Assembly (NCBI GenBank): GCA_002415345.1
Contig: DHXV01000001.1
Location: forward strand, 332,517-396,516
Direction: 5' to 3'
DNA from: Patescibacteria group bacterium UBA5147
Lineage (GTDB): Bacteria > Patescibacteriota > Saccharimonadia > UBA4664
DNA length: 64,000 bases
Both the position numbers and the translations under genes were made by a program. The notes below the pieces were generated by a model, which searched no databases, had not been told where the DNA came from, and was given only the letters and a program-made list of their open reading frames with translations. How positions within the stretch are numbered: the first letter of the stretch is position 1; the number at the start of each line of letters is the position of its first letter. Positions 2,056-20,009 of this stretch are shown one piece after another.

Positions 2056-3948
2056 CTACGCTACCTCCCCGACTTCCTGGGCCGCGGCCGCGGCTTGCTC
2101 CTTGCGGGCGGCCTCAAGGGCCTTGGGGTCGGTGGAGATAAGCTGGGACTCGGTCTCGGAGGCCAGGATGCGGATGACGACGTGGTTGAGGCCGGCAAAG
2201 AACAGGCCCTCGCCCACAGGGAACTGGCTGAGGCGGTTCTTTTCCTCGCTGGTGAGCTTGAAGGTTTCGGCCACGATGTCGATGGCGCTCGGCGCCTGCT
2301 TGAGCAGCAGCTGAAGGGACGAGTTCGCCACCACGGCGCGGCCCATCTTGTTGCTCAGGAAGTCCTCGACGTCCTGGCTGATGGTTGTCAGGCCCAGGTA
2401 GTACTTACGGGCGCGCTTGGCCAGCGAGAACATGAAGGCGGCGGAGTCGTCGTACTTCATCAGCTGCCAGGCCTCGTCGATGATGAGGATGCGCTTGCGC
2501 TTGTCGCTTTTGACCTTGTTCCAGATGTAGTTGAGGACGATATACATCCCGACCGGGCGCAGTTCGTCTTCCAGGTCGCGGATGTTGAACACCAGGAAAG
2601 GGTTGTCGAGCTGGACGTTGGATTGTTCGCTGAAGATGCCGCTGAAGGTGCCGGTGGTGTACTTGCGCAGGCGCTGGGCCAGCGACGGGCCGTTGCCGGT
2701 CATTGAAGCCAACGTGTTGTAGAGGTCATTCATGGTGGGCGGCGTGGCGTTGTGGGTCAGAGGGTCCTTGGAGATACCGGCCCGGGCGTAGGTGTTGATG
2801 ATGGCCACGTCCATGTCGGCGTCCTCGGCCGGGGTCAGGGGCGAGGTCAGGGTGGCTCCGGTGGTTGAGTTGACCGTGGCGCCGCCCATCATCAGGCGCA
2901 GGAGGCCGTGGAGGGTAATGATGTTGGCCTGCAGGGCGTTGTCGGCCTCTTCCTGGTCGAAGACGCGGGGCAGGTCAAACGGGTTGATGCGGGTTTGGGA
3001 GGCCAGGCTCAGGCGCAGGTAGCTGCCGCCGACAGCGTCGCTCAGGGCGCGGTACTCGTTTTCCGGGTCGATAACGATGACCTCGACGCCCATCATCAGG
3101 CTGCGCAGGGCCTCTAATTTAATGGCGAAGGATTTACCGGCACCGGACTTGGCGAAGACCACCATGTTGGCGTTCTCCAAACTGAAGCGGTCGAACAACA
3201 CCAGGCCGTTGTTGTGGCGGTTGAGGCCGTAGAGGATGCCCTCGTTGCGGCTGAGTTCCGAGGAGGTGAAGGGGAAACTGGTGGAGAGGGCGCCGGTGTT
3301 CATGTTGCGGCTGATTTGCATCTGGTCGCTGGCCAGAGGTGTAGTGGTGTTAAAGCCCTGCTCCATCTGCAAGGTGGCCGGCTTGGTATAAATGAGCGAC
3401 TGGCCAAAGATGCCTTCGATCTTACGGCCGATCTGCGTGAGCTCGTCGATGCTGTTGGCGTACATCGTCAGGTACAGGCCGAAGCGGAAGAAGCGCTCCT
3501 CGCCCACCTGGAGCTTGTCGCGGAGTTCCTCGGCGTCTTGGATGGCCGCTTCCAATCCGGGGTCGCGGACACGGCCCTTTTCCTGGTTGATGGAATAAGA
3601 CGCCTCCAGTTGGCCGACCTTACGCTTAAGGTTATCAAGCACTACGCGGCTTTCGACCGGGTAGATGTAAAGGGAGATATCGATGATTTCGTCCAGGTTG
3701 ATGATGGGCGACAGCCAGCCGGTGAAGACTTGGCGGGGGTAACCGTAGACGTAGACGGTCTTGGCGTAACGCTTGCCAATGCGGATGTAGCCCGAATCCA
3801 CTTCAATTGAGGGCGGGGCGATGAGGTCGCGCATAGTGACTACGCCCTGACGGTAAATCAGCTCGGCTTCGCGCTGTTCGGCGGCGCGTTGTGACTCGGC
3901 CAGTGCACCCGGATCGATCTGTTCATTTTTTTTGCCAAATAGTGCCAT
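2056..3948 (-). CDS. virB4: Type IV secretion/conjugation ATPase, VirB4/TrbE/TraE family.
   Basis: Walker A FAKSGAGKS and Walker B RILIIDEAW (the DEAW is typical of VirB4). Size of 630 aa is typical of monoderm VirB4. The start overlaps the upstream stop in a TAATG. Confidence 0.85.
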   Translation of the reverse strand: MALFGKKNEQIDPGALAESQRAAEQREAELIYRQGVVTMRDLIAPPSIEVDSGYIRIGKRYAKTVYVYGYPRQVFTGWLSPIINLDEIIDISLYIYPVESRVVLDNLKRKVGQLEASYSINQEKGRVRDPGLEAAIQDAEELRDKLQVGEERFFRFGLYLTMYANSIDELTQIGRKIEGIFGQSLIYTKPATLQMEQGFNTTTPLASDQMQISRNMNTGALSTSFPFTSSELSRNEGILYGLNRHNNGLVLFDRFSLENANMVVFAKSGAGKSFAIKLEALRSLMMGVEVIVIDPENEYRALSDAVGGSYLRLSLASQTRINPFDLPRVFDQEEADNALQANIITLHGLLRLMMGGATVNSTTGATLTSPLTPAEDADMDVAIINTYARAGISKDPLTHNATPPTMNDLYNTLASMTGNGPSLAQRLRKYTTGTFSGIFSEQSNVQLDNPFLVFNIRDLEDELRPVGMYIVLNYIWNKVKSDKRKRILIIDEAWQLMKYDDSAAFMFSLAKRARKYYLGLTTISQDVEDFLSNKMGRAVVANSSLQLLLKQAPSAIDIVAETFKLTSEEKNRLSQFPVGEGLFFAGLNHVVIRILASETESQLISTDPKALEAARKEQAAAAAQEVGEVA

Positions 3949-4679
3949 TACAGTTTTGCTCCTGGGAGCGGCCGGTGCGGCGCGGCGCCCTCACCCTTTT
4001 CCACGACCGGTGTCATGAGCTGGGCGGTATCGATTAGTTTCTGGTTGACGGCCACGTCCGGGTTGTACCAGCCGTAGTAGAGGTCGATGAGTTCCTGGGT
4101 GCCGAGCGCGATGGCGCGGATGCCCATTTGGCTCATGCCGCTCGATACCAAGGCCACGCGTTGGGATAATTCCTGCTTGTAGTGCTTGAAGTCGTCCTCG
4201 GCCACAGTGATGACCGGCGTCGGTTGGAAGGCGGCCTTGAGTCCGGTGATGAGGCTGGCGCTCTTCTTGACGTTGACCGGCGGGAAGAACGGCACCACCA
4301 CGTAGAACTGCTTGTCCATGATGTTGACCTCCTCCACCAGGGCGCGGATGTTGGCGATGTAGTCTTCCATGAGGAGGCCCAACAGGTCGTTGGATTGCTG
4401 GGTGCGCAGGCCCACCAGCTTCTCAATGTAGTTGTCGAGGTCGATTTTCTGGCTCTTGATGACGATTTGGACCGGGAAGTGCAGCGAGTTCAAAAATCCC
4501 TGGTAGGCGAACTCGACGCCGTCCTGTTCCTGGGGGCTCATGAGGTCAAAGTTTATGGCACTGCCCAATACCACGGCGCGCATGCTGCCGTCTTTCATCA
4601 GCACCACACCGTCCTTGATCTCGGTGATCAGGAGCGTGTTCTGGGTACTCTTACTGGTCTTATTTACTGCTTGAGCCAT
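3948..4679 (-). CDS. Hypothetical soluble protein, translationally coupled to virB4 (TAATG overlap).
   Basis: 243-aa ORF with no TM or recognisable motif. Its position inside the T4SS block suggests an accessory role. Confidence 0.5.
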   Translation of the reverse strand: MAQAVNKTSKSTQNTLLITEIKDGVVLMKDGSMRAVVLGSAINFDLMSPQEQDGVEFAYQGFLNSLHFPVQIVIKSQKIDLDNYIEKLVGLRTQQSNDLLGLLMEDYIANIRALVEEVNIMDKQFYVVVPFFPPVNVKKSASLITGLKAAFQPTPVITVAEDDFKHYKQELSQRVALVSSGMSQMGIRAIALGTQELIDLYYGWYNPDVAVNQKLIDTAQLMTPVVEKGEGAAPHRPLPGAKL

Positions 4680-5520
4680 TGCTTCGTAATTCCACCGACT
4701 GACCTTCTTGTAACGGCGTAATGCGCGTGGCGGTTGCCGCCAGTTGCGACACCGTAAGGTCGTCTCTCTCCGTTGCTAATTTAAGTATATCGTTCGGGTT
4801 GGCTGTTGTCACGCTTGTGCTTATCTGCCGATTGTCGGCAACCTTGGGGGCCGGGCGACCGGTCATCTGGTCGATGGCTTCCTGGCGGATATCCACGGCG
4901 GCCTCCTGGATGAGCGAGGCCAGATTCTGCGCCAGAGGACTTTGCTGCAGGTCGAGCATATCGGGGGCCTGGGTTTCGTCGGCGACGTGCGGGGAGGTTT
5001 GGGCAGGTTCCACCAGTCGGTCGGAAACCACGTTCGGCTGGATGATCAGCGCGTCGGAAGCCGCCGAGGGCGGTGCGTTCCAGCCGCGCGAATCGATCAT
5101 GGTCCCGAGCCGCTCCAGCTCGCTGCGAACCTCCCTGGGGTTGCGCTGCGTCTGCTCCACCACCACGGCGTTGGGTTGGATGCGGAAGGAATCCACAACC
5201 TCGTCCTTGCGCCATAACCGTTGCCGCGACTGGGAGAAGTACCCCACCATGGCAATGAGCAATTGCTCAAAGTTCTGGCCGTCGCGCTGATAGAACGCCA
5301 GCAGGAGGAACAAAATGGTGACGGGCGCCGCCATGATAATCATCAACGGAACGACAGCGTGGAGCAGGGCATAACTTAACCCCGCCCACGTCACGCCGAT
5401 GATGGCGTAGATAAACTGCTTGAGCGTCAACGGCCCAAGAATATGGTCTTCGGCCTCAACGTTCTGCGGCACTTTATACTGGCTCATACCCTCTTGCTCC
5501 CTCATTCCACGCCCGCTCAC
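4660..5520 (-). CDS. Membrane protein with two adjacent N-proximal TM helices, possibly VirB3/PrgI-like, and a long C-terminal soluble region.
   Basis: Hydrophobic hairpin FIYAIIGVTWAGLSYALLHAVVPLMIIMAAPVTILFLLLAFY immediately upstream of the virB4 partner gene, the conserved VirB3-VirB4 order. Overlaps the downstream ORF by 20 nt. Assignment by architecture only. Confidence 0.4.
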   Translation of the reverse strand: MSGRGMREQEGMSQYKVPQNVEAEDHILGPLTLKQFIYAIIGVTWAGLSYALLHAVVPLMIIMAAPVTILFLLLAFYQRDGQNFEQLLIAMVGYFSQSRQRLWRKDEVVDSFRIQPNAVVVEQTQRNPREVRSELERLGTMIDSRGWNAPPSAASDALIIQPNVVSDRLVEPAQTSPHVADETQAPDMLDLQQSPLAQNLASLIQEAAVDIRQEAIDQMTGRPAPKVADNRQISTSVTTANPNDILKLATERDDLTVSQLAATATRITPLQEGQSVELRSNGSSSK

Positions 5521-5620: not shown

Positions 5621-8600
5621 CTAGTTGATGCTGCGGTCGTCGCCTGGTTCATTGGTTTGGTCGCGCGGAGCGAGACGGAGCGACGTACTCGGGCCGTTCG
5701 TTCGACTGCCAGGAGTGGTCGGCAAGATAATGGTCCCGTAGTCGGGGCGCCCGCCGGATTGCTTCAACCTTTCGGAAAGTGTAAAACTGGGTCGCTCCGA
5801 CGTTACATTCGGGATGTCAGTAACTGATGAACCTTGGTTGGGCGCAGTTCGCCACGTCATGGTTGCCGGCGGACTCATCGTAGTCGGCGCAGGTTCGGGT
5901 GTGCCTCCGCCAGGTACGTTAATAGTCACGTTAGTATCATAGGCATTGCTCGACGAAGGATTATGGTTGGGCAGGATCAAATTAGGATTTGGATTAACGC
6001 TAGTAGTAGGAATAACCAGGCCGTTTGGCTGGGTTGACCAACCGCCCGAGACGCCGCTTCTGGCTTGGGCAGCATTGGGATTGGGGCTGGTATTTTGATT
6101 GTAAGGAATGTTTTGGGTCGGCGCAGGGCCTGCAGAGACACCCGATGGAGCCGAGCTGGCCGCGGGTGCACTACCCCCAGCACTTGTCCCTGATCCGCCT
6201 CCACTCGGGGTACTCCCGCTAGGTCCAGAGCCGCCACCCACTGGTCCGGATCCTGTGACCGCACCGCCGGCCCTTTGGGCCGCTAGTAAATTGGCTTTCT
6301 CAACCGGGGTATGAACGCTTACTCCGATATCTGTGCCAAGTTGGTTCAGGGTATCTCGGGTATCATTGTTGATATTGTTAACGCCGGTCGTTGATCCGTT
6401 GATACCGACTACTACGTTTCGCATATTCTCATCAAAGGCATCCAGCTGCTGTTTTGCTGCAACTTCGCCCGTACTTCCGATAGCGGATACGTGCGCAGCC
6501 TTCAATGCGTTGCGACGGTTGACCATAGCTTGTGCGCCGACGTTATCAAGCCGGACGCCTTTCTCGGCCTTGATATTATCGTAAGCAGCTGCACCTCCGG
6601 GAGAGACTAAATGGGGTGCCTTTTCTTTTAGGCCGGAAAAATTCCCCGCCGTTGCCTTAATCCACTCGGAATTAGTCGTGTCGTTGCCATATTTATTGGC
6701 TAGGACGGTCTGTAGTTTTCCGGTATCTTCAATCGCCGCCAGCTTAGCCGTAGCAGCCCGGCTTGTGAACTGACTTGATTTGGTATCTAACGCCTTAGCT
6801 AACAGTGTCGACGGATTATCATTCTCTAGCAGGCGACCGGCCGCTGTCAGCTGATCTTTATCATTCTTTTCAAGAGCTCCTGCCATACGGTTAGGATCGA
6901 TTTTGTCGATACTCAGACCCGCCTGTTGTTGGGCTAATTTACGCTGGGTCCCCTGCTTTAAACGACCAAAACCGGTAGTTGCGGGACCCGCCTGATTTAA
7001 GGAATTGATTTTGGAAAGTCCCTTCTGCTGGCGGTTGTAAGCCCGGTTCTGTTTCATCTTGTCCTGCGCCCCGGAGATGGCGCTGTGGCCACGTTTGGCA
7101 TGGCCACTAATAAAGCCATGGCCCATCATCAAGGCGCTACCGGCAAATTTGAACGTTGCCGGAATAAGGAACAAGGCAATGATTGGCGCTAGGGCAGAAC
7201 CGAGCTTAGTCCAGTTTGAGGCATCCCCCGAACCTGTAATGACGACACTGAAGAATTTGGATGTCGCAAGCAATAGGACAATAATCGGGTACATTAGCAG
7301 CAGCTTGACAAGGGTTTCGCGCCACATCTTGAAGTACTTGTCGGTATTGGGCAGGACCCAAAGTAGAAAGGCTATCGGAGCTATAATAATCAGGAAGTCT
7401 ATGAGCATGATGCGAATCTGAAGAGTAATAAAGACCGCTATCAAACCAATAATAGCTGCGGCCAGGGCTAGTAAAAGCGGTATGGCAAACTCCGCGAGGA
7501 ATGGCGCGAAAGTCGCTGCCGCAACACCCGCACCAACACCCGCGCCGACTAATTCAACGGCGCCCGCGATTTGCATAACCCCTTCATTACCGGTTTTTAC
7601 CCCTCCGGGGATTGCTGCGGCCATGAGACTGTCGATACCCATACCCAGCACATTAGAGATGTCCACCATGAAGCCTACCAAAAGGTAGGAGAATTGAACG
7701 AGAACGGCTGCCGCTATGAGGCGGGGAAGGATTTTTTTGACCGTGTAATTATCGAGACCCATACTGGTGCCAAAAATAACAATAAAGAATATAAGCACAA
7801 AAAAGACGTCCGCTAGATTCCTAAACACAGCCCAGGCAGGCTTTAGGCCTGTGTCGCCAGACGCTAGGGGCGTGAACTTCAGTTGGTTCTTGACGACGCC
7901 GGTAAGATTGTTAACTGCACCTTGGGCTATGCTAATGACCGGACATAACAACCAGGTAAGACTGTCGACGGAGCAGACGGCTTGGACCTCGCTGGGTGTT
8001 GGATCTGTTGTCGGAGCAGCAGGAGCGTTGTTCTGACTGAGATTTAATGTATTTGACCCGGCCGCCAATACTACGCCGGGTTTGGTAATTTTTACGGGGA
8101 AGGAGGCCAGTCCTGGGCCTTCGCTGTACGCGCCATCAATAGTGACAGTGTAAGTTCCGGGCTTCAAATTTCCGAGAGTAAAACTGCCATTTGTGTTCAA
8201 GGGGACTTTTTGGGTTCCGCTCGGCCCGCCGGAGACGGTAAGGTAACCCGAGGTTACCGGCATGTCTTTTTTTAGGCCCTGGTCAAAAAAAGTGGCGGTG
8301 CCGGAGAGCGTTGCGGTCTTGGCTACGGCTGCCAGTGTCTTAACAGGTATCGTAACCTGGTCTAATTTGCCACCGACCGTACATAGATTCCGGCTGGGTC
8401 CACCGAGAAGCGTACCCCAGGTAAGAGAACTGGTGGGTGAACCCGTTCGGTCGGAAACTGAGACATTAAATAGGACGGTGTTATCGCATCCGCCGGAACT
8501 GCTTACCTGAGTGTTGTTTATCGGGCCGGATTTCCAGGTCTTCGACTTGGCATCATAGGTTAAGTTGACGGTTACGGGTTGTTCATTTGTGTCGCGTCGC

Positions 8601-8779
8601 GTGGCGATAACGGCAACATTGCTTGTCATGTTTGGAGTAAGGGTAACCTCTACTCCTCCGCGTCCCTGAGGATCTCCGGTGGTCGCCTGCGCCTGCGCTG
8701 GAAGTGCGGCAAATAAGTTACCTATAGACAATAAGCCTGTAGCCACCACCAACAACATTCGAGATAGTCTTTGCACCAT
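5621..8779 (-). CDS. VirB6/TrbL-like polytopic membrane protein (1052 aa) with signal peptide, a roughly 300-aa extracellular N-domain and a roughly 280-aa Ser/Gly/Pro/Asn-rich disordered C-terminal tail.
   Basis: Multi-TM core (FFVLIFFIVIFG...ILPRLIAAAVLVQFSYLLVGFMVDISNVLGMGI...) is paralogous to the core of 10157-12769. A LKPGTYTVTI Ig/CarbopepD_reg-like segment lies in the N-domain. The tail is low complexity (GSGPVGGGSGPSGSTPSGGGSG..., NPNPN). Confidence 0.6.
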   Translation of the reverse strand: MVQRLSRMLLVVATGLLSIGNLFAALPAQAQATTGDPQGRGGVEVTLTPNMTSNVAVIATRRDTNEQPVTVNLTYDAKSKTWKSGPINNTQVSSSGGCDNTVLFNVSVSDRTGSPTSSLTWGTLLGGPSRNLCTVGGKLDQVTIPVKTLAAVAKTATLSGTATFFDQGLKKDMPVTSGYLTVSGGPSGTQKVPLNTNGSFTLGNLKPGTYTVTIDGAYSEGPGLASFPVKITKPGVVLAAGSNTLNLSQNNAPAAPTTDPTPSEVQAVCSVDSLTWLLCPVISIAQGAVNNLTGVVKNQLKFTPLASGDTGLKPAWAVFRNLADVFFVLIFFIVIFGTSMGLDNYTVKKILPRLIAAAVLVQFSYLLVGFMVDISNVLGMGIDSLMAAAIPGGVKTGNEGVMQIAGAVELVGAGVGAGVAAATFAPFLAEFAIPLLLALAAAIIGLIAVFITLQIRIMLIDFLIIIAPIAFLLWVLPNTDKYFKMWRETLVKLLLMYPIIVLLLATSKFFSVVITGSGDASNWTKLGSALAPIIALFLIPATFKFAGSALMMGHGFISGHAKRGHSAISGAQDKMKQNRAYNRQQKGLSKINSLNQAGPATTGFGRLKQGTQRKLAQQQAGLSIDKIDPNRMAGALEKNDKDQLTAAGRLLENDNPSTLLAKALDTKSSQFTSRAATAKLAAIEDTGKLQTVLANKYGNDTTNSEWIKATAGNFSGLKEKAPHLVSPGGAAAYDNIKAEKGVRLDNVGAQAMVNRRNALKAAHVSAIGSTGEVAAKQQLDAFDENMRNVVVGINGSTTGVNNINNDTRDTLNQLGTDIGVSVHTPVEKANLLAAQRAGGAVTGSGPVGGGSGPSGSTPSGGGSGTSAGGSAPAASSAPSGVSAGPAPTQNIPYNQNTSPNPNAAQARSGVSGGWSTQPNGLVIPTTSVNPNPNLILPNHNPSSSNAYDTNVTINVPGGGTPEPAPTTMSPPATMTWRTAPNQGSSVTDIPNVTSERPSFTLSERLKQSGGRPDYGTIILPTTPGSRTNGPSTSLRLAPRDQTNEPGDDRSIN

Positions 8780-8891: not shown

Positions 8892-9995
8892 TCAGTGTGA
8901 ATTCGCCCACAAGTTGGTATATCCGCCGGGGTCCGGCGAACTGAACCAGTTGTACATGAGCGAACGGGAGATGGTTTTGCCACCCCTCTGCTCGGTAGCC
9001 TCAACGGTTATTGTGCCCGGGTGGGCAGGCCCCGTTGATTTGAGCAAAGTTGACGTGAAGCCCGTTGGAACCTTGCCAGCCTTGAGGTCGGCAATTTCCT
9101 GGATTTCGACGGGATTGTCGCCCATTTCTCCGGGGTAGTAGAACCGAAGGAGGCCCTCGCTCTTTTGGATGAAAGCCTGCTGGCGCATACCCTCAAGCCG
9201 GGCGACGACCTTGGCCGGGTCGTCCTGAACCGATTGTCCGGTTTCAACCTGGGCGAACGAGGAGTTCGCCATGAACGCGGGCGCACCAACGATGAGCCAG
9301 TGCGTGCCTTCCAGACGGACGAGAACGGGACCCCATGACTTGGGGTCGCCTCCATTCGTGAACGAAAGCGACAGGTCGTACCAGCGGCTGGTCGAACCGG
9401 CTGCTGCCTGAGGGTCCGAAACGACAGTCGGTTCATTGGTCAGTGAGACGATTCCGCACAAGGCGGGCGACTGCTGACCGTACTGGACGTACCAGAATGA
9501 CTTCATCTCCTGCATGAACCCCCACAGGTAGTGAGGGTTAAGAGTAGACTTGCCGCCGTGACCGCACGATGCGGACCACGCGATGTTGAAACCTCCGAGG
9601 ATTTTGTCGATTCGATCGGTCGCCGCGCCCTTTATCGGAGGAAACTCCGGGAGGGCGTCAGCCGTCTTGAGGCGCTGGGCCAAAGGCACCCGTGCATCGG
9701 CAATACTGCCGACAAACGCCTTTGGGGTCGCAGGTACGTGTGCCGGAGCGACAGGCGCGTTGCCGGAGTTGCCGGTAAGAGGAGCCCTTACTGCCGGGTC
9801 GCTGAAGATGTTTGCAGATCCGGCGTTGTCCTGATTCACGGCGTTGATGAGGGAGGTTGCGAACCACGCCGCGCCAATGACCAGAAGAACCAGGGCAATC
9901 CAGACGACTCGCATGACCTTCTTCTTGGTGCTGGTCGGCTGCGGCTGGATTGAGGGAGTCTCGGTGACCCCATCAGTGTGACGTGTGGTAGTCAT
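8892..9995 (-). CDS. Bitopic protein (27-aa cytoplasmic N-terminus, one TM, about 310-aa extracytoplasmic domain); candidate VirB8/TcpC-like T4SS component.
   Basis: The topology matches VirB8-like proteins and it lies between the two VirB6 paralogs. No sequence motif was recognised. Confidence 0.4.
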   Translation of the reverse strand: MTTTRHTDGVTETPSIQPQPTSTKKKVMRVVWIALVLLVIGAAWFATSLINAVNQDNAGSANIFSDPAVRAPLTGNSGNAPVAPAHVPATPKAFVGSIADARVPLAQRLKTADALPEFPPIKGAATDRIDKILGGFNIAWSASCGHGGKSTLNPHYLWGFMQEMKSFWYVQYGQQSPALCGIVSLTNEPTVVSDPQAAAGSTSRWYDLSLSFTNGGDPKSWGPVLVRLEGTHWLIVGAPAFMANSSFAQVETGQSVQDDPAKVVARLEGMRQQAFIQKSEGLLRFYYPGEMGDNPVEIQEIADLKAGKVPTGFTSTLLKSTGPAHPGTITVEATEQRGGKTISRSLMYNWFSSPDPGGYTNLWANSH

Positions 9996-10156: not shown

Positions 10157-12769
10157 TTATGAGGTAGGTGGCGGCGTGGTATTGCGCCCGATATTCTTCA
10201 ACCGGGCAGCCTCCTGCTTTGTCACCCAATTGCTAGCATCTGAATTGAGCTTGAGAGTACTGGTTGCGGGGTTATACTTGCGGCCCTGCATCAACTCATA
10301 GGCTACCCATGCCTTGGTTGTCGTCGATAGATTATCGAGCAAGGTAGCCGGTACGCCGGCTTCGCGGGCAAGCTCGTGGGTTATATCTGAGTCGCGGTGG
10401 AAGTCGGCTGTGAGAGCCTCATATTTATCGCGTCCCACTTGCGTTGCGGTGATGGCAGCCCGCTGGGATGCAAAGGCTCGGGCCATTTTGAGGCGGTGTT
10501 CAACCGGGGCCATGTTGCGACCCGTAACGTCAAATGCACCGGTAATTGAACGCTGAGGCAAGCTGGCTGCCACACGCTCGGCGCTTTCCCTGGACACGCG
10601 TTTTTCAAGTTCGGTGGCATCCGGCTCCTGGCCTTTGAGGATAACGCCCCAGTTGTCGGTGGAAAACTTGTCGCCCAGGGTGTTGGCGGTGGTCTTGCGG
10701 AGCTGCTTATCGATTGAGGTCCAATCCAGGTCGCCGCGTTCGCGCTTCATTACCAATTCAACTTCATTGCCGCTGGAGTCGATGACCTTCATGGGCTGTC
10801 CTGCCGCATCCTTAGGGGTATATTTATCTTTGGCTTCTGTCATGCGCATCGTGGAAAACGGGTTGGAGGAGCGACTCTTGCCGACTTCACTCATCAATGC
10901 GGCGTATTCGGACGCGGGATCGCGACTGACGCTCGTGGGGTTAGAGAGCCTACCGGCCTTTAAGACGTTGTTGACATCGTTGTCGGTTAGGAAACCCTTG
11001 TCGCTGAGGCGGCTGAGTATCGCCCGGCGTCCGGTTTGGTTGGAGCCTATTTGTGCCAGGTTGGGTACGGTACGGTTCAGATCGTCAATCCTTCCCCTAC
11101 GTTTGGCTGCGTCCGGTTCGGCGTAGGCGGCCAAAACATCTTGCATGTTCTTTGGGCTCTGAGCCTCGGTCAGGTCATCAAGTAATTTGCCGTCCGACTT
11201 TACCAGCTGTGCATTTCTCTTATCCAGTGCGCGCTTGCTGGTTGGCCCGCCTGCCAGCATGCCGCCGCCGAAGCCGACCATCGCCGCCCCGGCGACTCCG
11301 CGCTTTAATTTATTACCGCTCGAGAGTGAGGTTATCGGCTTTGAATTCATGAAGTTTTCCATATGCTGGTTCTTACGCTTTTTGCGCTCATCAACCCCGC
11401 GCTGCCAGAAATCGCTGCTCTTGAGGGCGCCTTTTCCGCGTTGGGCGTGGCCGTTCATCAGATCGTAGGCCCGGGTGAGGCCCTTTCCGGCTAGTTTGAA
11501 CGTCACAGGAATAATCAGGAAGGCCGCAATGACCACTATGGGTTTGATCAGGTTTCCGGCCATACCGGCGCCAACACTGTCGGCGGTTGAACTGCCAGCT
11601 GGCAGGATTGAGTTGACGAGGCCGGCCAGAGAAATTACGCCGACGATAATCGGATACATTAAGACGAGCCGAAATAACAGCTCCATCCAGTCCTTGGCCC
11701 AGTGGCGCGTGTTGGGCAGAACCCAGGCAACCATGGCCAAAGGTGAAACCACGATGAGAATGGCGATGAGCAGGAAGCGCAGGCCCAACACCAGGAAGAC
11801 GACCAGGAGCGAAATGGCCATGCTCGCCAGGAGCGGCGCGATTGCTACCCACGACGCGGCACCTAGAACAGCGCCAAGCGCCAGGGCGCCGGCCAGACCT
11901 ATTCCAACCAGGTTAGTCAGGACGTGGGCAAAGCTGGCGTCGCTTTGCGGCCCGGTAGCCGCTCTCAGCAGGTCTTCAATCCCCGCCCCCATGACGTTGC
12001 CGATATCCACCATGAACCCGACAAGCAGGAATGAAGCTTGGACTAAGATCGCCGCTACCACGAGCCGCGGCAGGACCTTTTTGATGGTGTATTGATCGAA
12101 GTAGCCGATATCCTGCTGGGTGATGGTCGCAAAAATAATAACCAGGAAAACCAGCAGGAACATAATCTCTGCCAGATTGACCATTTTGAGCCAGATATCG
12201 TATAGCTCGGGCGTGGACTGTTGATTGATGGCCTTCACCCGAAGGAGCGGTATCAGGACGCCGTTCGCGAGCTTAGTGATGGCGCCGGTAGCGTTGTCGA
12301 TGAACGGACACATGAGCCAGGACATGCTGCCCTGGTCGCACGAGGCGGCGGCCGCCTGCTGGTCGGCCGTGGTGGTACCGTCCGCTTTGGCCACGGCAAT
12401 AGCGAGGTCAAAGGCGGCACAGGATGCCTCGGACGGAACAGTCAGGTTCGCCAGGGTCGGATAAATCTTTTTGAAGTCGGCATTGCTGACGTCAAGGGAG
12501 ACTTTGGAGGTTTTTGCGGCCCCGCTGCATGTGTAGGAGACGTCGCCCGTGAAGGTCGCCGCGGAGGTAGCGGCGGTCTTCTTGAGGGTTCCGCTGACCT
12601 GGCCACTGCCCCCGGCTACCGTCACAGATTGGTTGGTATCGTCGGCCCAGGCGTATGTTTCCCCCGCCGCGTGCGCGGGCTGAGCTATCAAGGTCAGCGC
12701 GGCTATTGCGACTGCCGCCAAAAACGCGCGGCTAAAGTGTAGTTTTAAGATAGATATAAGGTAAAACAC
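10157..12769 (-). CDS. VirB6/TrbL-like polytopic membrane protein paralog (870 aa) with signal peptide, Cys-containing extracellular N-domain and about 420-aa hydrophilic C-terminal domain.
   Basis: TM core MFLLVFLVIIFAT...TIKKVLPRLVVAAILVQASFLLVGFMVDIGNVMGAGIEDLL closely parallels the 5621-8779 core. A shared pre-TM motif (SMSWLMCPFI versus SLTWLLCPVI) is present. Confidence 0.6.
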   Translation of the reverse strand: MFYLISILKLHFSRAFLAAVAIAALTLIAQPAHAAGETYAWADDTNQSVTVAGGSGQVSGTLKKTAATSAATFTGDVSYTCSGAAKTSKVSLDVSNADFKKIYPTLANLTVPSEASCAAFDLAIAVAKADGTTTADQQAAAASCDQGSMSWLMCPFIDNATGAITKLANGVLIPLLRVKAINQQSTPELYDIWLKMVNLAEIMFLLVFLVIIFATITQQDIGYFDQYTIKKVLPRLVVAAILVQASFLLVGFMVDIGNVMGAGIEDLLRAATGPQSDASFAHVLTNLVGIGLAGALALGAVLGAASWVAIAPLLASMAISLLVVFLVLGLRFLLIAILIVVSPLAMVAWVLPNTRHWAKDWMELLFRLVLMYPIIVGVISLAGLVNSILPAGSSTADSVGAGMAGNLIKPIVVIAAFLIIPVTFKLAGKGLTRAYDLMNGHAQRGKGALKSSDFWQRGVDERKKRKNQHMENFMNSKPITSLSSGNKLKRGVAGAAMVGFGGGMLAGGPTSKRALDKRNAQLVKSDGKLLDDLTEAQSPKNMQDVLAAYAEPDAAKRRGRIDDLNRTVPNLAQIGSNQTGRRAILSRLSDKGFLTDNDVNNVLKAGRLSNPTSVSRDPASEYAALMSEVGKSRSSNPFSTMRMTEAKDKYTPKDAAGQPMKVIDSSGNEVELVMKRERGDLDWTSIDKQLRKTTANTLGDKFSTDNWGVILKGQEPDATELEKRVSRESAERVAASLPQRSITGAFDVTGRNMAPVEHRLKMARAFASQRAAITATQVGRDKYEALTADFHRDSDITHELAREAGVPATLLDNLSTTTKAWVAYELMQGRKYNPATSTLKLNSDASNWVTKQEAARLKNIGRNTTPPPTS

Positions 12770-12814: not shown

Positions 12815-12843
12815 TTGACTTATTGTTTCCGCTTGGCTATGAT
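12815..12843 (+). promoter_or_regulatory. Promoter TTGACT-N17-TATGAT. The -10 ends 6 nt before the ATG at 12850, implying a leaderless or near-leaderless pilin transcript.
   Basis: Hexamers read directly. Divergent from the VirB6 paralog gene. Confidence 0.5.
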
Positions 12844-12849
12844 TTGGCC

Positions 12850-13281
12850 ATGAAGCGCATATTTCTCGCAATCTGGATAGCTCTCGTTTTGGCTGCCGCG
12901 GCAATGCCAGTCAGCTATGAGTTAACCAGCGGCCGAATGACAGTCGTCTCTTCTATGGCCCTCGCAGCATGTCCTGACGGTCAAGTTGAATTGAGTGTCA
13001 AAGTTAATAGCACCGATAGCGGATGCGTTAAGCCTGATCCTAATGGCGGGGTAATCATTACTTATCTCAAGACGATCTTGAAGTTCTTGAGCGGGGGCGT
13101 CGGCATTGTCATTTTGCTTATGCTCACCATAGCGGGCGTCCAATACATGACCGCTGTCGGCCAACCCGAGCAGGTGAAGGCTGCCAAGACCCGGATCCAG
13201 AACGCCCTCACCGGCTTGGTGCTGTTCCTTATTGCCTTCGCCGTCCTTAACTTAATCATCCCCGGGAGTATCTTCGGCTAA
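12850..13281 (+). CDS. VirB2/TrbC-like T4SS pilin paralog 1 (the ORF track starts at TTG 12823; the ATG at 12850 gives a clean signal peptide MKRIFLAIWIALVLAAAAMP).
   Basis: Signal peptide, a variable region with a Cys pair (AACPDG...DSGCVKPD), then two C-terminal hydrophobic helices separated by a short polar loop (VGQPEQVKAAKTR). Confidence 0.5.
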   Translation: MKRIFLAIWIALVLAAAAMPVSYELTSGRMTVVSSMALAACPDGQVELSVKVNSTDSGCVKPDPNGGVIITYLKTILKFLSGGVGIVILLMLTIAGVQYMTAVGQPEQVKAAKTRIQNALTGLVLFLIAFAVLNLIIPGSIFG

Positions 13282-13625
13282 TGTTTGCTTTAAGCTTCTT
13301 TAAACTGGCCGCCGCCTGCACGACGACCACCAAAGGCGGAATCGCTCCGGGGTTGTATGATAACTTGTGCTCGAACGGCACAGATATGTTTTCCAGCTTG
13401 ACTGACATCTGGATCGTCGTCGCCAACGTCATCCGTATCCTGGTGGCGCTCGGCGGGGCGCTGGCGGTTATTTTCATCATCGTCGGCGGCCTGTTCTACG
13501 TCGTATCATCGGGAGATCCCGGCCGCATCAAGCGGGCCAAGGACATACTCAAGGAATCGATTATCGGTCTGATTATTACATTGATAGCGTATTCGGCTAT
13601 AACGTTTATAGCGGCGCAGTTTTAG
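13281..13625 (+). CDS. VirB2/TrbC-like pilin paralog 2.
   Basis: TAATG overlap with paralog 1. N-terminal region has a Cys pair, followed by IIVGGLFYVVSSGDPGRIKRAKDILKESIIGLIITLIAYSAITFIAAQF. Confidence 0.5.
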   Translation: MFALSFFKLAAACTTTTKGGIAPGLYDNLCSNGTDMFSSLTDIWIVVANVIRILVALGGALAVIFIIVGGLFYVVSSGDPGRIKRAKDILKESIIGLIITLIAYSAITFIAAQF

Positions 13626-13627
13626 CG

Positions 13628-13936
13628 ATGATGAACTTACAGCACCTTTATTCCGTCGTCGCCCCCATTTCGGTTAAGGCCGATGAAATCGGGCTTCCTC
13701 ACTCCACAGAAACCGTCGGCGGGGCACTGAACGTCGCTGTAAAAATCCTGATCTTCCTGATCGGGATGCTGTCGGTGGTAATGATTATCGTCGGCGGAAT
13801 TAAGATTGTCGTTTCAAATGGCGACCCGGGTCGGTATAAATCGGGACGGGACACCATAACCTACGCTATAGTTGGTCTGATTCTATCCTTGGTAGCCTAC
13901 TCGATAGTAATTTTCATCGCCAGTAACGTTAAATAG
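13628..13936 (+). CDS. VirB2/TrbC-like pilin paralog 3.
   Basis: MIIVGGIKIVVSNGDPGRYKSGRDTITYAIVGLILSLVAYSIVIFIASNVK. No Cys pair and a weak N-terminal hydrophobic region. Confidence 0.45.
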   Translation: MMNLQHLYSVVAPISVKADEIGLPHSTETVGGALNVAVKILIFLIGMLSVVMIIVGGIKIVVSNGDPGRYKSGRDTITYAIVGLILSLVAYSIVIFIASNVK

Positions 13937-13947
13937 AAGGATTCATC

Positions 13948-14256
13948 ATGCCTGCCACTTTTTTGGCCAATGCCAGCGACATTATTAAACAATCAGCGGA
14001 TCTGGCATGTAAGACCGACTGTAACACCAGGGGCCTCCCGCTCATCATCCAGTCGGTAACTACTGCACTCCTGGGAGTCATCGGGGCGCTGGCGGTAATC
14101 ATGATTATCGTCGGCGGTCTTCGGTATGTCACCTCCGGAGGCGACCCGAAGAAAACGGCCGATGCTAAAAATACCATAATGTACTCTATCGCCGGCGTCG
14201 TGGTGGCGATTATGGCTTATGCGATAGTGAAGTTTATCATCGCCTCGGTAAAATAG
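13948..14256 (+). CDS. VirB2/TrbC-like pilin paralog 4.
   Basis: RBS AAGGAT. Cys pair CKTDC, followed by IMIIVGGLRYVTSGGDPKKTADAKNTIMYSIAGVVVAIMAYAIVKFIIASVK. Confidence 0.5.
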   Translation: MPATFLANASDIIKQSADLACKTDCNTRGLPLIIQSVTTALLGVIGALAVIMIIVGGLRYVTSGGDPKKTADAKNTIMYSIAGVVVAIMAYAIVKFIIASVK

Positions 14257-14334
14257 CGCTCCGTTGCCATACCTCAAACGGTATGGTAATCTCAGCGTAA
14301 GTTATTCAACAAAAATAAGGAGTCATATACTCAG

Positions 14335-14754
14335 ATGAGAATCGCAATCCTCGGCAAGAAAATTGCCTTAACCATGCAGGCAGTCGCCATCGGCCTGGGC
14401 TTTAGCGCCTTCAGCCTGGCTGCCGTAACAGTTGTCCCGTCAACTGCCCTAGCCGCAGACTGTTCCACTCTCAATATTTCAAACGGAGCCGACTGTGCCG
14501 CCCCGACTGGTGCCAAACCCACATTGTTCGGTGAAGGCAGCATCTTCAACACCGTTGCCAACACCCTGATCTTCCTGGTCGGCGCCATTGCCGTCCTGTT
14601 CCTGATTATCGGCGGTCTCCGCTACGTCGTATCCAACGGCGAGGCCAAGAACGTTGAAGCAGCCAAGAACACCATTCTCTATGCCATCATCGGTATCGTC
14701 GTGGCGATCCTGGCCTATGCGGCCGTCAAGTTCGTCATCACGTCCCTGGCCTAG
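14335..14754 (+). CDS. VirB2/TrbC-like pilin paralog 5 (clear signal peptide).
   Basis: RBS AAGGAG. Cys pair CSTLNISNGADC, followed by FLIIGGLRYVVSNGEAKNVEAAKNTILYAIIGIVVAILAYAAVKFVITSLA. Confidence 0.5.
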   Translation: MRIAILGKKIALTMQAVAIGLGFSAFSLAAVTVVPSTALAADCSTLNISNGADCAAPTGAKPTLFGEGSIFNTVANTLIFLVGAIAVLFLIIGGLRYVVSNGEAKNVEAAKNTILYAIIGIVVAILAYAAVKFVITSLA

Positions 14755-14862
14755 TCCCGACTCAAATAAATAGGCTCAACCAAGCCGCAAAGAGCGCCTC
14801 CCAGGAGGCGCTCTTTAGTTGCTTGTGACTTCCATGAATCGGATTAACCAATCCGCTGGCAA

Positions 14863-14897
14863 TAAAAAATAGCCCCTATCGGCAGGGGCTATTTTTT
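14863..14897. terminator. Bidirectional rho-independent terminator (AAAAAAT-AGCCCCTATCGGCAGGGGCT-ATTTTTT) between the pilin array and hsp20.
   Basis: Perfect 8-bp stem flanked by an A-run and a T-run. Confidence 0.8.
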
Positions 14898-14929
14898 AGA
14901 TTTGCATTAGGCCCGAACGGTGGTCGTAA

Positions 14930-16232: not shown

Positions 16233-16325
16233 GGAGAGGTACCCAAGTGGCTGAAGGGGCGGGTTTGCTAAACCTGTAGGGGGAAGTAATTCCCCGCGAG
16301 AGTTCGAATCTCTCTCTCTCCGCCA
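16233..16325 (+). tRNA. tRNA-Ser (anticodon GCT), class II long variable arm, CCA encoded.
   Basis: Hand-folded cloverleaf. T-arm GGTTCGAATCC. Anticodon loop TTGCTAA. Confidence 0.8.
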
Positions 16326-16327
16326 AG

Positions 16328-16360
16328 AAAAAGACCCGGTTTGTAGCCGGGTCTTTTTCT
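16328..16360. terminator. Bidirectional terminator (AAAAA-GACCCGGTTTGTAGCCGGGTC-TTTTTCTT) shared by the tRNA-Ser and the convergent 16369-18849 gene.
   Basis: 8-bp stem plus T-run. Confidence 0.8.
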
Positions 16361-16368
16361 TGGCTTAA

Positions 16369-18849: not shown

Positions 18850-18869
18850 AACGGTAGTATAGCGATTTT

Positions 18870-18955
18870 TGGCGGAGGGGGTGGGATTCGAACCCACGGA
18901 GCTTTCGCTCGCCGGTTTTCAAGACCGGAGCACTCGGCCACTATGCGACCCCTCC
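18870..18955 (-). tRNA. tRNA-Ser (anticodon TGA), long variable arm.
   Basis: Reverse complement reads GGAGGGGTCGCATAGTGG...CTTGAAA...GGTTCGAATCCCACCCCCTCCGCCA. Confidence 0.8.
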
Positions 18956-19074
18956 GTGCCAACCTATTGTAGTTACCTGGCCGATATTTTCAATCCTGTT
19001 CTTACCCAACCATAACCATTGTATTGTACAATCGCTGCGCTATCGGCCATAATGAGAGCGAATAAGGACTACTC

Positions 19075-19692
19075 ATGGACGATTCCAACGTCTCCCCTAC
19101 CCAGCCTAAAGATCAGCAAGATACGGCTTCCTCGGACAACGAAGCGGCAGCCGAAGTTTTAGAGGCGCCTAAGGACGGGGCCGCCGAGGAGGTGGAGAAC
19201 CAGCAGCCTGAGCTCCAGGAGCAGGAGCAAGAGCCGGAGCCGGATTTCACCTGGCAGGCCAGCGAGTACGTCCATCATCATAAGGGAGCCGGTTGGTATG
19301 CCAGCCTGGCAGGAATTATCGCCCTGTTAATAATCGTTGCCGTGTTCTATAAATCATGGGTCAGCATAGGTGTTTTTCTAGCCATGGGTGCGGCCATTGC
19401 CGTATACGCGCAGAAGCCGCCGCGGGTTCTGACCTACGAATTGGATTCCCAAAGCGTGACGATTGAAGGTAAGGCGTACCCGTACAAGAACTTCCGTTCG
19501 TTCGGCGTCATCAGCGACATCGAATGGCACACCATCGACCTTGAACCAACCCAGCGCTTCATGCCCCGCCTGACGGTTCTGTTCAGTGATGAAGATTTTG
19601 ACTCAATTGTGGATCACATGTCGCTCCATCTCCCCCGCGCCGACCGCCAGCCGGACGTGATTGAGCGGCTCACCCGCTATTTACGCTTTTAG
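19075..19692 (+). CDS. Hypothetical membrane protein with an acidic N-terminus (E/Q/D-rich), two TM helices and a C-terminal domain.
   Basis: 205-aa ORF with a single coding frame and hydrophobic segments AGIIALLIIVAVFY / IGVFLAMGAAIAVYA. Confidence 0.5.
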   Translation: MDDSNVSPTQPKDQQDTASSDNEAAAEVLEAPKDGAAEEVENQQPELQEQEQEPEPDFTWQASEYVHHHKGAGWYASLAGIIALLIIVAVFYKSWVSIGVFLAMGAAIAVYAQKPPRVLTYELDSQSVTIEGKAYPYKNFRSFGVISDIEWHTIDLEPTQRFMPRLTVLFSDEDFDSIVDHMSLHLPRADRQPDVIERLTRYLRF

Positions 19693-19744
19693 CCGCCCGG
19701 GCTCTTCACGCACAGCCTCAAATATGCTATCTTCATTAGGTCGT

Positions 19745-19820
19745 GCGCCTGTAGCTCAGTGGATAGAGCATCGCCTTGCGGTGGCGGGGGTCGCAGGTTC
19801 GAGTCTTGCCAGGCGCACCA
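19745..19820 (+). tRNA. tRNA-Arg (anticodon read as GCG; verify).
   Basis: 76-nt cloverleaf GCGCCTGTAGCTCAGTGGATAGAGC...TTGCGGT...GGTTCGAGTC...CACCA. Confidence 0.7.
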
Positions 19821-19919
19821 AAGAAATTACCTCACTAACGTGGGGTTATTTCTTTTTTATGCTAAGTTGTATTGGTTGATAAGCCTTTTCATATCGAAAT
19901 AACTTATGCTTACATATCC

Positions 19920-20009
19920 GGAGAGGTCGCATAGTGGACTAGTGCGCCGCACTCGAAATGCGGTGAGGCCGCAAGGCTTCCGAGAGTTCGAATCTCTCCC
20001 TCTCCGCCA
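19920..20009 (+). tRNA. tRNA-Ser (anticodon CGA), long variable arm.
   Basis: GGAGAGGTCGCATAGTGG...CTCGAAA...GTTCGAATCTCTCCCTCTCCGCCA. Confidence 0.8.

Follow-up and report, generated by a model that had tools for sequence, protein, structure and literature searches.

Five divergent VirB2-like pilin paralogs form a conserved array beside the T4SS genes of a Saccharimonadia chromosome

Analysis of a 64-kb chromosomal stretch from a Saccharimonadia bacterium (the window, hereafter) points to a single operon that probably specifies five anciently diverged, non-redundant VirB2-like pilins of a chromosomal, monoderm-type (MPF-FATA-related) T4SS. The array is correctly recognized but is not new as a phenomenon: such arrays were reported in 2020, catalogued in 2025 and, in a relative that has been cultivated, shown to be essential.

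The array comprises five tandem ORFs on the forward strand (12850-14754), encoding proteins of 143, 114, 102, 102 and 139 aa, which are flanked by candidate transcription signals:

12815..12843, forward strand: sigma-70-like promoter candidate (TTGACT-17-TATGAT; 10 of 12 matches; prediction only)
12850..13281, forward strand: pilin 1, 143 aa from the ATG or 152 aa from a TTG at 12823; PF18895 31.2 bits
13281..13625, forward strand: pilin 2, 114 aa; PF18895 36.0 bits
13628..13936, forward strand: pilin 3, 102 aa; PF18895 37.5 bits
13948..14256, forward strand: pilin 4, 102 aa; PF18895 57.0 bits, PF04956 28.6 bits
14335..14754, forward strand: pilin 5, 139 aa; PF18895 38.1 bits
14789-14816 and 14863-14898, forward strand: two terminator-like hairpins with 12-bp and 15-bp stems

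The inference of a single operon follows from the promoter-like site, the overlapping or abutting stops and starts of the first three genes, and the hairpins past the fifth. The stop of pilin 1 and the start of pilin 2 overlap (TAATG), pilin 3 starts 2 nt past the stop of pilin 2, and the hairpins lie between the array and a convergent hsp20 gene. Pilin 4 has a Shine-Dalgarno sequence (GAAGGA), and AAGGAG lies upstream of pilin 5. No Shine-Dalgarno sequence is seen ahead of the pilin 1 ATG at 12850, and given that the promoter candidate ends just 7 nt upstream of this ATG, the mRNA of the array may be leaderless. In those orthologue gene calls of pilin 1 that start further upstream, the promoter stretch is translated as a conserved 'LGYDL', which fits a conserved -10 box.

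All five proteins share a C-terminal two-helix module, and the consensus of our alignment agrees with that given by the first-pass annotation, which had proposed both the shared module and its VirB2/TrbC character. Comparisons of the modules by BLASTP recover every pair of pilins at 28-54% identity (E 1e-10 to 1e-27), and an HMM of the module searched against the six-frame translation of the window retrieves exactly the five pilin ORFs, with no further copies. The divergence between them is illustrated by pilin 1, which shows 18-30% full-length identity to the other four. Family assignment is equally consistent: all five exceed the gathering score of PF18895 (T4SS_pilin; 26.6 bits), in agreement with the precomputed annotation of identical contigs, while PF04956 (TrbC/VirB2; 27.9 bits) is passed by pilin 4 alone (28.6 bits, E = 1.7e-6, i.e. 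0.7 bits over the cutoff), with no reported match for the other four at E of 1 or below. Pilin 4 is the most canonical of the five, and PF04956 recurs in the precomputed annotation of many relatives in the family. A profile of the five pilins matched 77,163 cluster representatives and, in a separate search, PF18895 was carried by all of the best 120 proteins. Against the model NF045849 (cutoff 40 bits), which describes the Mbov_0395 family of pilin-like conjugal transfer proteins from Mycoplasma ICEs, pilins 1-5 score 35.7, 19.4, 25.1, 38.2 and 22.5 bits (E 8e-10 to 6e-4); as all lie below the cutoff, the scores mark them as relatives of this equivalog rather than members.

The VirB2-type organization, with two hydrophobic segments and a short charged loop, is apparent from hydropathy, from the alignment and from an AlphaFold2 model of pilin 4 (pLDDT 70), in which three helices (3-24, 30-62 and 67-100) form a head helix followed by a helical hairpin. 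The profile of pilin 4 orthologues detected no solved pilin among PDB sequences, its sole match being a chance one to MacB (E = 0.39), and a Foldseek search of the PDB with the model returned only generic helical hairpins (E above 0.7; none at 0.001 or below), a null result of little negative weight for so simple a fold. The likeness to structurally characterized VirB2/TraA pilins is therefore carried by the PF04956 match of pilin 4. It is extremely improbable that these are unrelated two-helix membrane proteins merely adjoining the T4SS, such as the holins that the first-pass annotation had itself named as an example of a profile-search outcome that would speak against it: such proteins can be of this size and carry two hydrophobic helices, and fold searches cannot separate helical hairpins, but no holin family appears in the Pfam/NCBIfam results and the best matches are pilin families, the window otherwise carries housekeeping genes of the chromosome and no phage context, and the linkage to T4SS genes is kept from Saccharimonadia to Bacillota plasmids. 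We regard this reading as refuted by the profile searches, the hydrophobic architecture and the context.

The T4SS genes themselves lie on the opposite strand:

10157..12769, reverse strand: extended VirB6-like polytopic membrane protein, 870 aa, divergent from the array; aligns over 401 positions with the 1052-aa TrbL_3 protein at 35% identity (E = 4e-55)
8892..9995, reverse strand: 367-aa protein of no assigned family (no Pfam or NCBIfam match), in the position of SEML1_0012
5621..8779, reverse strand: extended VirB6/TrbL-like protein, 1052 aa; PF19590 (TrbL_3) in the precomputed annotation of identical contigs
4660..5520, reverse strand: PrgI family (VirB3-like) protein; PF12666 56.5 bits
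3948..4679, reverse strand: TrsD/TraC-like protein, 243 aa; PF26593 (TraC-like) in the precomputed annotation, NCBIfam TrsD E = 5e-7, below its cutoff
2056..3948, reverse strand: VirB4-like T4SS ATPase, 630 aa; PF19044 (TraG P-loop) 90 bits, plus AAA_10 and DUF87

The array adjoins, as had been noticed at the outset, a T4SS with VirB4-like, TrsD-like and PrgI components and two VirB6-like paralogs, and this encoding of the pilins in one cluster with VirB4 and VirB3/PrgI is kept in the related loci L007-L012. Orthologues of the 870-aa VirB6-like protein carry PF19590 (TrbL_3), and the 243-aa TrsD/TraC-like protein corresponds to an N-terminal portion of VirB4 that is split off as a separate protein. 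A scan of a genome collection with the 870-aa protein recovered one genome. The source organism of the window is environmental, with a GC content of about 55%.

The closest parallel is the locus SEML1_0008-0022 of Southlakia epibionticum, in which SEML1_0014-0019 are six PF18895 pilin genes, each essential by Tn-seq (Wang 2023, PMC10633639); all six scored GD/ES/ES, with the proviso that polar effects can make genes located upstream in an operon score as essential by Tn-seq. Both loci, each from the class Saccharimonadia, show the series VirB4, small protein, PrgI, VirB6-like, small protein, VirB6-like with the pilins arrayed on the other strand, and Hsp20, ComF-like and tRNA-Ser genes downstream of the array; both encode PF18895 pilins, some of which also match PF04956. 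They differ in the lengths of the pilin genes and in their number, six in S. epibionticum (132, 185, 103, 126, 127 and 138 aa) as against five here. SEML1_0012, whose position is taken here by the 367-aa protein, is NTF2-like and non-essential. Judged by gene order, we take the present locus to be orthologous by position to the T4SS/pilin locus of S. epibionticum ML1. Others have shown that locus to be essential for epibiotic growth. An equivalent array was described in TM7x as an 'array of small secreted proteins' (McLean 2020, PMC7427843), and Quinonero-Coronel 2025 (PMC12102498) catalogued 441 arrays in Patescibacteria, each with 2-11 pilin genes in the vicinity of virB4, abundant in Saccharimonadia and with a mean within-array pilin identity of 25%, from which the present array shows no substantial difference. 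Neither Cys pairs nor signal peptides are mentioned in that study, nor is the conservation of paralog types among orthologues.

N-terminal to the module, the five proteins part company. As initially observed, the heads are unrelated to each other, with one exception, namely the approximately 40-aa leaders of pilins 1 and 5, which are 39% identical over 41 aa; the pre-module regions span 30-72 aa rather than the 40-90 aa first given. Pilin 1 has such a leader ending in ALA|AC, followed by the head and a module that is divergent yet very strongly conserved, and the leader of pilin 5 ends in TALA|ADC. Pilin 2 has a short, 12-aa hydrophobic N-terminus, MFALSFFKLAAA|C, and a head resembling a widespread class with the pattern C..FLGxPxWYxxL..C. 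The N-terminal sequences of pilins 3 and 4 show no signal peptide; on inspection of the sequences, a segment resembling a classical signal peptide is present in pilins 1 and 5 only. Lipoprotein processing was considered for the L-A-A-C of pilin 1 and dropped, the lipobox not being conserved among its orthologues.

These leaders bear on the view of McLean 2020 and the TM7x transcriptome paper, where the proteins figure as 'small hypothetical proteins with signal peptides' and later as 'putative effector genes', i.e. as small Sec-secreted effectors delivered to the host. While the signal-peptide-like N-termini of pilins 1 and 5 are in keeping with it, all five proteins close with a pair of long hydrophobic helices, as is typical of hairpins integral to the membrane, and all match pilin HMMs, while a signal peptide is absent from three of them; we consider this view very improbable and reject it on the profile matches, the hydrophobic architecture and the context.

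Exactly two Cys residues are present in the pre-module region of four of the five, in line with the first-pass annotation, at C41/C59 in pilin 1, C13/C30 in pilin 2, C21/C25 (CxxxC) in pilin 4 and C43/C54 in pilin 5, the spacings, in ascending order, being 4, 11, 17 and 18 instead of the 4-16 reported there. Pilin 3 has no Cys, nor does the module of any of the five. This pattern extends across the family: in a first set of 120 proteins, the heads contain 0 Cys in 24, 1 in 6, 2 in 88, 3 in 1 and 4 in 1, and the module lacks Cys in 113. For 136 representatives of the family, taken from clusters at 50% identity or less, the corresponding counts from 0 to 6 Cys are 36, 14, 62, 9, 8, 2 and 5; setting apart the 36 with no Cys, 75 have an even and 25 an odd number, where 41% even would be expected under a Poisson model (p = 7.5e-12). 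This family-wide bias towards even counts supports disulfide formation, and a disulfide-bonded extracellular head is a reasonable interpretation. No disulfide-forming enzyme was found among the part of the window's ORFs that was screened with Pfam, a result uninformative for the genome as a whole.

Comparisons with relatives show that the head of each paralog type is conserved. In the orthologue group of each paralog the heads are alignable, with 54-69% mean identity and retention of the Cys positions; for pilin 1, identity in the group is 0.89 in the module, 0.64 in the head and 0.45 in the leader. The five types recur in identical order in five related loci (L007-L011), bordered by the VirB6-like gene and, on contigs long enough to include it, also by hsp20; the types left unconfirmed in them are pilin 5 of L009, at a contig end, and pilin 4 of L010, which was called at 70 aa and not compared. 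Pooled dN/dS over these loci (NG86) is 0.14-0.22 for the heads and 0.05-0.125 for the modules, values that are rough and qualitative only, since pS of 0.47-0.72 implies saturation of dS in most comparisons, and that leave room for positive selection at particular sites. Non-synonymous divergence (pN) is 0.20-0.34 in heads versus 0.04-0.15 in modules, a difference in rate of about 2-5 times. Qualitatively, then, heads evolve faster than modules, both at ratios well below 1. Six further contigs from as many metagenome assemblies (L001-L006) match the window at 100% identity along 10-20 kb; these represent the same genome and hence are uninformative about variation of the heads between strains.

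These data bear on the description of the heads in the first-pass annotation as 'hypervariable' and on its suggestion of antigenic variation, for which it had proposed comparing dN/dS of heads and helices. In such a reading, for which speculation on host range and antigenic variation in the pilin arrays of Patescibacteria is already present in PMC12102498, the paralogs would be interchangeable variants, only one or a few of which are needed at once, comparable to the VirB2 arrays that this study names for Bartonella and Anaplasma phagocytophilum. The resemblance to the latter lies in tandem, divergent genes of a host-associated bacterium, and the lack of relationship between the heads and their faster non-synonymous change would accord with the idea. 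However, the arrays of Bartonella and Anaplasma are tied to immune evasion in animal hosts, whereas here each head type is conserved in its orthologue group, the same five stand in the same order in related loci, head dN/dS indicates purifying and not diversifying selection within the limits of saturation, near-identical DNA repeats or cassettes are absent from the array, and the six syntenic pilins of S. epibionticum are individually scored as essential, which argues for non-redundant roles. Hypervariability of the heads is thus not upheld, and interchangeable variants appear quite unlikely. The conservation of ancient paralog types in a fixed order instead favours a division of labour among the five.

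As to the provenance of these pilins, they share with the VirB2/TrbC/TraA pilins of diderms the small size, the two hydrophobic helices with a short basic loop, a location adjoining VirB3/VirB4 homologues and, in pilins 1 and 5, the long leaders. They differ in that four of the five fall below the PF04956 cutoff, the searches with pilin 4 gave no match to a solved pilin, there are extra N-terminal heads with Cys pairs, and five paralogs instead of one serve a monoderm that has no outer-membrane core complex. The premise of the first-pass annotation that monoderm conjugation systems normally lack VirB2 pilins holds as a generality (PMC12102498, according to which MPF-FATA systems have no pilins, and PMC12857230); it is qualified by single PF18895-type genes in Bacillota plasmid clusters and by the NF045849 family of Mycoplasma ICEs, to which the pilins of the window are related. 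On plasmids of Planococcus and Pontibacillus, homologues of the pilins adjoin PrgI and VirB4-like genes as a single gene with no array, and in that of Pontibacillus, too, a signal peptide precedes a Cys pair. The related single-copy genes in conjugation clusters of Bacillota and Mycoplasma suggest that the pilin arrived together with the MPF-FATA-type system, borrowing from diderm systems being less likely.

A mechanistic interpretation may be offered for the preferred reading of five non-redundant pilins. Each would insert in the cytoplasmic membrane as a helical hairpin, with the positively charged G-D-P...K loop in the cytoplasm and the head and C-terminus facing outward. Pilins 1 and 5 are predicted to use a long Sec-type leader, probably cut by signal peptidase I at the A-x-A just ahead of the first Cys, and pilins 2-4, with their short N-terminal tails, could be translocated without a cleaved leader. 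The paired Cys would form one disulfide stapling each small extracellular head. The VirB4/TrsD ATPase, PrgI and the VirB6-like platform would then extract the subunits and build from them a pilus-like or conduit structure that crosses the envelope toward the host bacterium, with the heads displayed on its outer surface. In it the five types would have distinct structural roles that are not interchangeable, e.g. shaft as opposed to minor, tip or base subunits. The polymerization step is proposed by homology, and in the literature, where no T4SS pilus has been seen in Patescibacteria, PMC12857230 terms it a 'possibility'.

A pilus-independent role in the translocation channel or stalk is known for VirB2. 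The pilins could likewise stay in the membrane as T4SS channel or stalk parts that form no extended extracellular pilus, an alternative that shares most of the above steps and differs only in the final state of assembly. It is in accord with the monoderm type of the system, whose Firmicutes counterparts work without a pilus, with the lack of any observed T4SS pilus in the CPR, and with the existence of relatives in which 2-17 tandem pilin modules are found in single polypeptides, which are awkward for extraction subunit by subunit. It is rendered unlikely, in our judgement, by the pilin-profile matches and by the conserved heads of disulfide type, which suggest exposure beyond the membrane. 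A bolder elaboration, tentative and unlikely, is that the five paralogs co-assemble in fixed roles as a heteromeric, disulfide-stapled host-exchange conduit, a VirB2-type structure made by a monoderm T4SS and with no known homopolymeric counterpart, the same module being supplied elsewhere as 'poly-pilins' of 2-17 modules. If true, this mode of supply would imply a route of assembly or processing that is not known among conjugative pilins, e.g. with signal peptidase cutting behind each second helix.

The pilin arrays of Patescibacteria are the only case of a monoderm T4SS that apparently builds a VirB2-type structure, and the system is essential for S. epibionticum on its host. The window adds one more instance, from an environmental member of the Saccharimonadia, and not a new phenomenon; what the present analysis contributes is the even-Cys bias, the poly-pilins and the single homologues in conjugation clusters of Bacillota. 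The even-Cys signature, located just past the likely site of leader cleavage, could be probed simply, by mutation and biochemistry, in S. epibionticum, a genetically tractable species, and the conservation of the paralog types predicts that each non-polar deletion of a single pilin would be defective.

Five tandem genes encode small VirB2-like proteins, each with a leader or head followed by a C-terminal two-helix module, together with the following signals:

12850-14754, + strand: pilins 1-5, tandem ORFs of 143, 114, 102, 102 and 139 aa
12815-12843, + strand: sigma-70-like candidate site TTGACT-17-TATGAT, ending 7 nt 5' of the first ATG
14789-14816 and 14863-14898, + strand: two strong hairpins, 3' of the last pilin gene

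The first-pass annotation had described five genes with a common module, unrelated heads and two cysteines in four of the five, and apart from small numerical slips this is right. The shared C-terminal module spans ~70 aa and combines two hydrophobic helices with a G-D-P...K loop; its pairwise identity is 28-54% (E 1e-10 to 1e-27), and across the full 64 kb window an HMM of it matches these five ORFs and no others. The pre-module regions (30-72 aa) are mutually unrelated except for the ~40-aa leaders of pilins 1 and 5. Four of the five pilins have exactly two cysteines, spaced by 4, 11, 17 and 18 and all within the head, and there are none in the five modules. All five exceed the gathering score of PF18895 (T4SS_pilin; 31-57 bits against 26.6), and pilin 4 also passes PF04956 (TrbC/VirB2; 28.6 bits vs the 27.9 cutoff). 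All five likewise match NF045849, the NCBIfam 'Mbov_0395 family pilin-like conjugal transfer protein' of Mycoplasma ICEs, significantly at sub-threshold scores. In an AlphaFold2 model of pilin 4 (pLDDT 70), a head helix leads into a helical hairpin; comparison of this protein with solved structures, by fold and by sequence profile, was uninformative.

The start codon of gene 2 begins on the final base of the gene 1 stop (TAATG), and the subsequent gaps are 2 nt (genes 2 to 3), 11 nt (3 to 4) and 78 nt (4 to 5). Given this spacing, the promoter-like site and the hairpins after the last gene, pilins 1-5 look like a single operon. As the -35/-10 pair lies so close to the ATG of pilin 1, with no Shine-Dalgarno sequence before it (12815-12849), that transcript may be leaderless; gene calls that start upstream read the -10 region as a conserved 'LGYDL'.

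From the array outward, on the opposite strand, lie six T4SS-side genes:

10157-12769, - strand: polytopic protein, 870 aa, a paralogue of the 1052-aa protein (35% identity over 401 aligned positions, E = 4e-55)
8892-9995, - strand: 367-aa protein, no family assigned
5621-8779, - strand: TrbL_3/VirB6-like protein, 1052 aa
4660-5520, - strand: PrgI (VirB3-like), 286 aa
3948-4679, - strand: TrsD/TraC-like protein, 243 aa
2056-3948, - strand: VirB4-like ATPase, 630 aa

The passing of PF18895 by all five proteins in the Pfam check, along with these adjoining genes, supports the proposed pilin and T4SS identity. In both extended VirB6/TrbL-like paralogues (870 and 1052 aa), a polytopic core leads into a long hydrophilic C-terminal region; the N-terminus of the 870-aa protein is a signal-peptide-like, cysteine-containing region. 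Immediately 3' of the VirB4-like gene, a 686-codon open frame (3-2060, - strand) continues beyond the first base of the window. Neither Pfam nor NCBIfam gave a match for it, and its position is that of SEML1_0007, which encodes a large essential protein in the T4SS locus of Southlakia epibionticum ML1.

The gene order of the window is that of the S. epibionticum locus, where SEML1_0008 (VirB4), 0009, 0010 (PrgI), 0011, 0012 and 0013 (VirB6-like) are followed on the other strand by six PF18895 genes (SEML1_0014-0019), then Hsp20, ComFC and tRNA-Ser (Wang et al., 2023, PMC10633639). The two loci share the VirB6-like duplication (SEML1_0011 and 0013). In one related locus the two VirB6-like genes flank an IS481-type transposase (rve domain; L011:830-1720) in place of the small gene, which suggests that this position tolerates disruption and fits the non-essential SEML1_0012. 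An array of small secreted proteins was reported in TM7x (McLean et al., 2020, PMC7427843), and 441 arrays of 2-11 genes each, with a mean within-array identity of 25%, have been catalogued, most abundantly in Saccharimonadia and Microgenomatia (Quinonero-Coronel et al., 2025, PMC12102498); a review from 2025 says the same (PMC12857230). In view of the same locus order and this catalogue, the window array is a correctly recognized instance of an already known phenomenon.

On its 3' side the array is followed by hsp20, a ComF-like phosphoribosyltransferase gene and tRNA-Ser, and the remaining window is ordinary chromosome (ValRS, TsaD, FemAB, Mur ligase, GroEL, DnaG, RpoD, PolA). Four tRNA genes cluster at 16233-20009: three tRNA-Ser (gct, tga, cga) and tRNA-Arg(gcg). 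The annotated 5' end of an 842-aa ORF without a Pfam match (16369-18897, - strand) overlaps tRNA-Ser(tga) (18870-18955), so its true start probably lies further downstream; gene calls on identical contigs give 826 or 842 aa. Two FemAB-family genes (25192-26181 and 27020-28060, + strand) adjoin the Mur ligase, pointing to branched or interpeptide-bridged peptidoglycan in this bacterium. Window-identical contigs were assembled from at least six metagenomes, and among species-representative genomes the nearest is a Candidatus Saccharimonadia MAG (72% identity on the 870-aa protein).

The heads had been called hypervariable, and this did not hold. Among the best 120 of 1,515 relatives from a profile search, there is a separate full-length orthologue group for every window paralog, and head motifs and cysteine positions are kept within it; compared with the window protein, group members are on average 0.45-0.57 identical in the leader, 0.54-0.69 in the head and 0.64-0.89 in the module. 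In five related loci the stretch from the VirB6-like gene to hsp20 has these pilin types in unchanged order, with one pilin unconfirmed in each of two loci (one contig stops short of pilin 5 and hsp20; in the other, pilin 4 is called at only 70 aa and was left out of the comparison), and a more distant locus has a multi-gene array at the same place. Pooled NG86 dN/dS is low, at 0.14-0.22 for heads and 0.05-0.125 for modules, values reliable solely as a qualitative ordering because dS is saturated. No near-identical DNA repeats able to drive cassette exchange occur within the array, and all six S. epibionticum pilin genes scored as growth-defective or essential (Wang et al., PMC10633639). Antigenic variation, suggested at first pass and already offered along with host range as speculation by Quinonero-Coronel et al. 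(2025, PMC12102498), is thus not supported, and the conserved types and order, the dN/dS values, the lack of repeats and the individual essentiality in S. epibionticum favour five non-redundant structural roles.

The cysteine pair recurs across the family. Head counts among the 120 closest members are 0 in 24, 1 in 6, 2 in 88, 3 in 1 and 4 in 1, and the module lacks cysteine in 113 of the 120. A wider search, through 1.84 billion cluster representatives, gave 77,163 relatives, of which the best 150 were listed; among 136 of these representatives (clusters at 50% identity or less), heads have 0 (36), 1 (14), 2 (62), 3 (9), 4 (8), 5 (2) or 6 (5) cysteines, with 75 even vs 25 odd counts where a Poisson expectation is 41% even (p = 7.5e-12). 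The first cysteine usually falls just after an A-x-A-type site ending a signal-peptide-like leader, and recurrent head classes include C-G-F-x-G-x-x-C and C..FLGxPxWYxYL..C, the second of which the pilin 2 head resembles. This parity supports, short of proof, a predicted single disulfide per extracellular head. Neither 'cysteine' nor 'disulfide' occurs in the main text of Wang et al. (PMC10633639); in Quinonero-Coronel et al. (PMC12102498) 'disulfide' is absent and 'cysteine' appears solely in the context of VirB1.

Many family members, including the highest-scoring ones, combine 2-17 tandem pilin modules in one polypeptide (P0121-P0267, among the matches listed). A signal peptide comes first, then a Cys-pair head and one module, after which units of a 15-30 aa G/S/T/P-rich linker and a further module are repeated. 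The six-module P0121 (552 aa; L016:1777-3435) is encoded within a pilin gene array, and translation of its contig reproduces the protein faithfully; the two-module P0014 (L012:8001-8519) sits in a syntenic T4SS locus. The portions seen of the literature on these pilin arrays make no mention of such poly-pilins. Single PF18895-type genes, annotated as 'pilin' or 'Mbov_0395 family pilin-like', also adjoin genes for PrgI and VirB4-like proteins in conjugation clusters of Bacillota plasmids:

L014:9938-10300: pilin-like gene, Planococcus plasmid NZ_CP025123
L015:9719-10174: pilin-like gene, Pontibacillus plasmid NZ_CP062975

The premise that monoderm systems normally lack VirB2 pilins is qualified by these single genes and by the Mycoplasma-ICE family NF045849, suggesting that MPF-FATA-type monoderm systems are not devoid of pilin-like subunits.

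Our observations concern family membership, context, synteny, conservation and cysteine parity; the mechanism below is otherwise inferred from the VirB2 family, essentiality having been shown by others in a relative. The pilins would insert as membrane hairpins with the head outside, pilins 1 and 5 would undergo leader cleavage, and a disulfide would staple the head. The VirB4/TrsD, PrgI and VirB6-like machinery would then extract and assemble them. The main rival is that the pilins form a membrane-retained channel without an extended pilus. On the assembly reading, a pilus-like or conduit structure aimed at the host bacterium would result, with the five pilin types in distinct roles.
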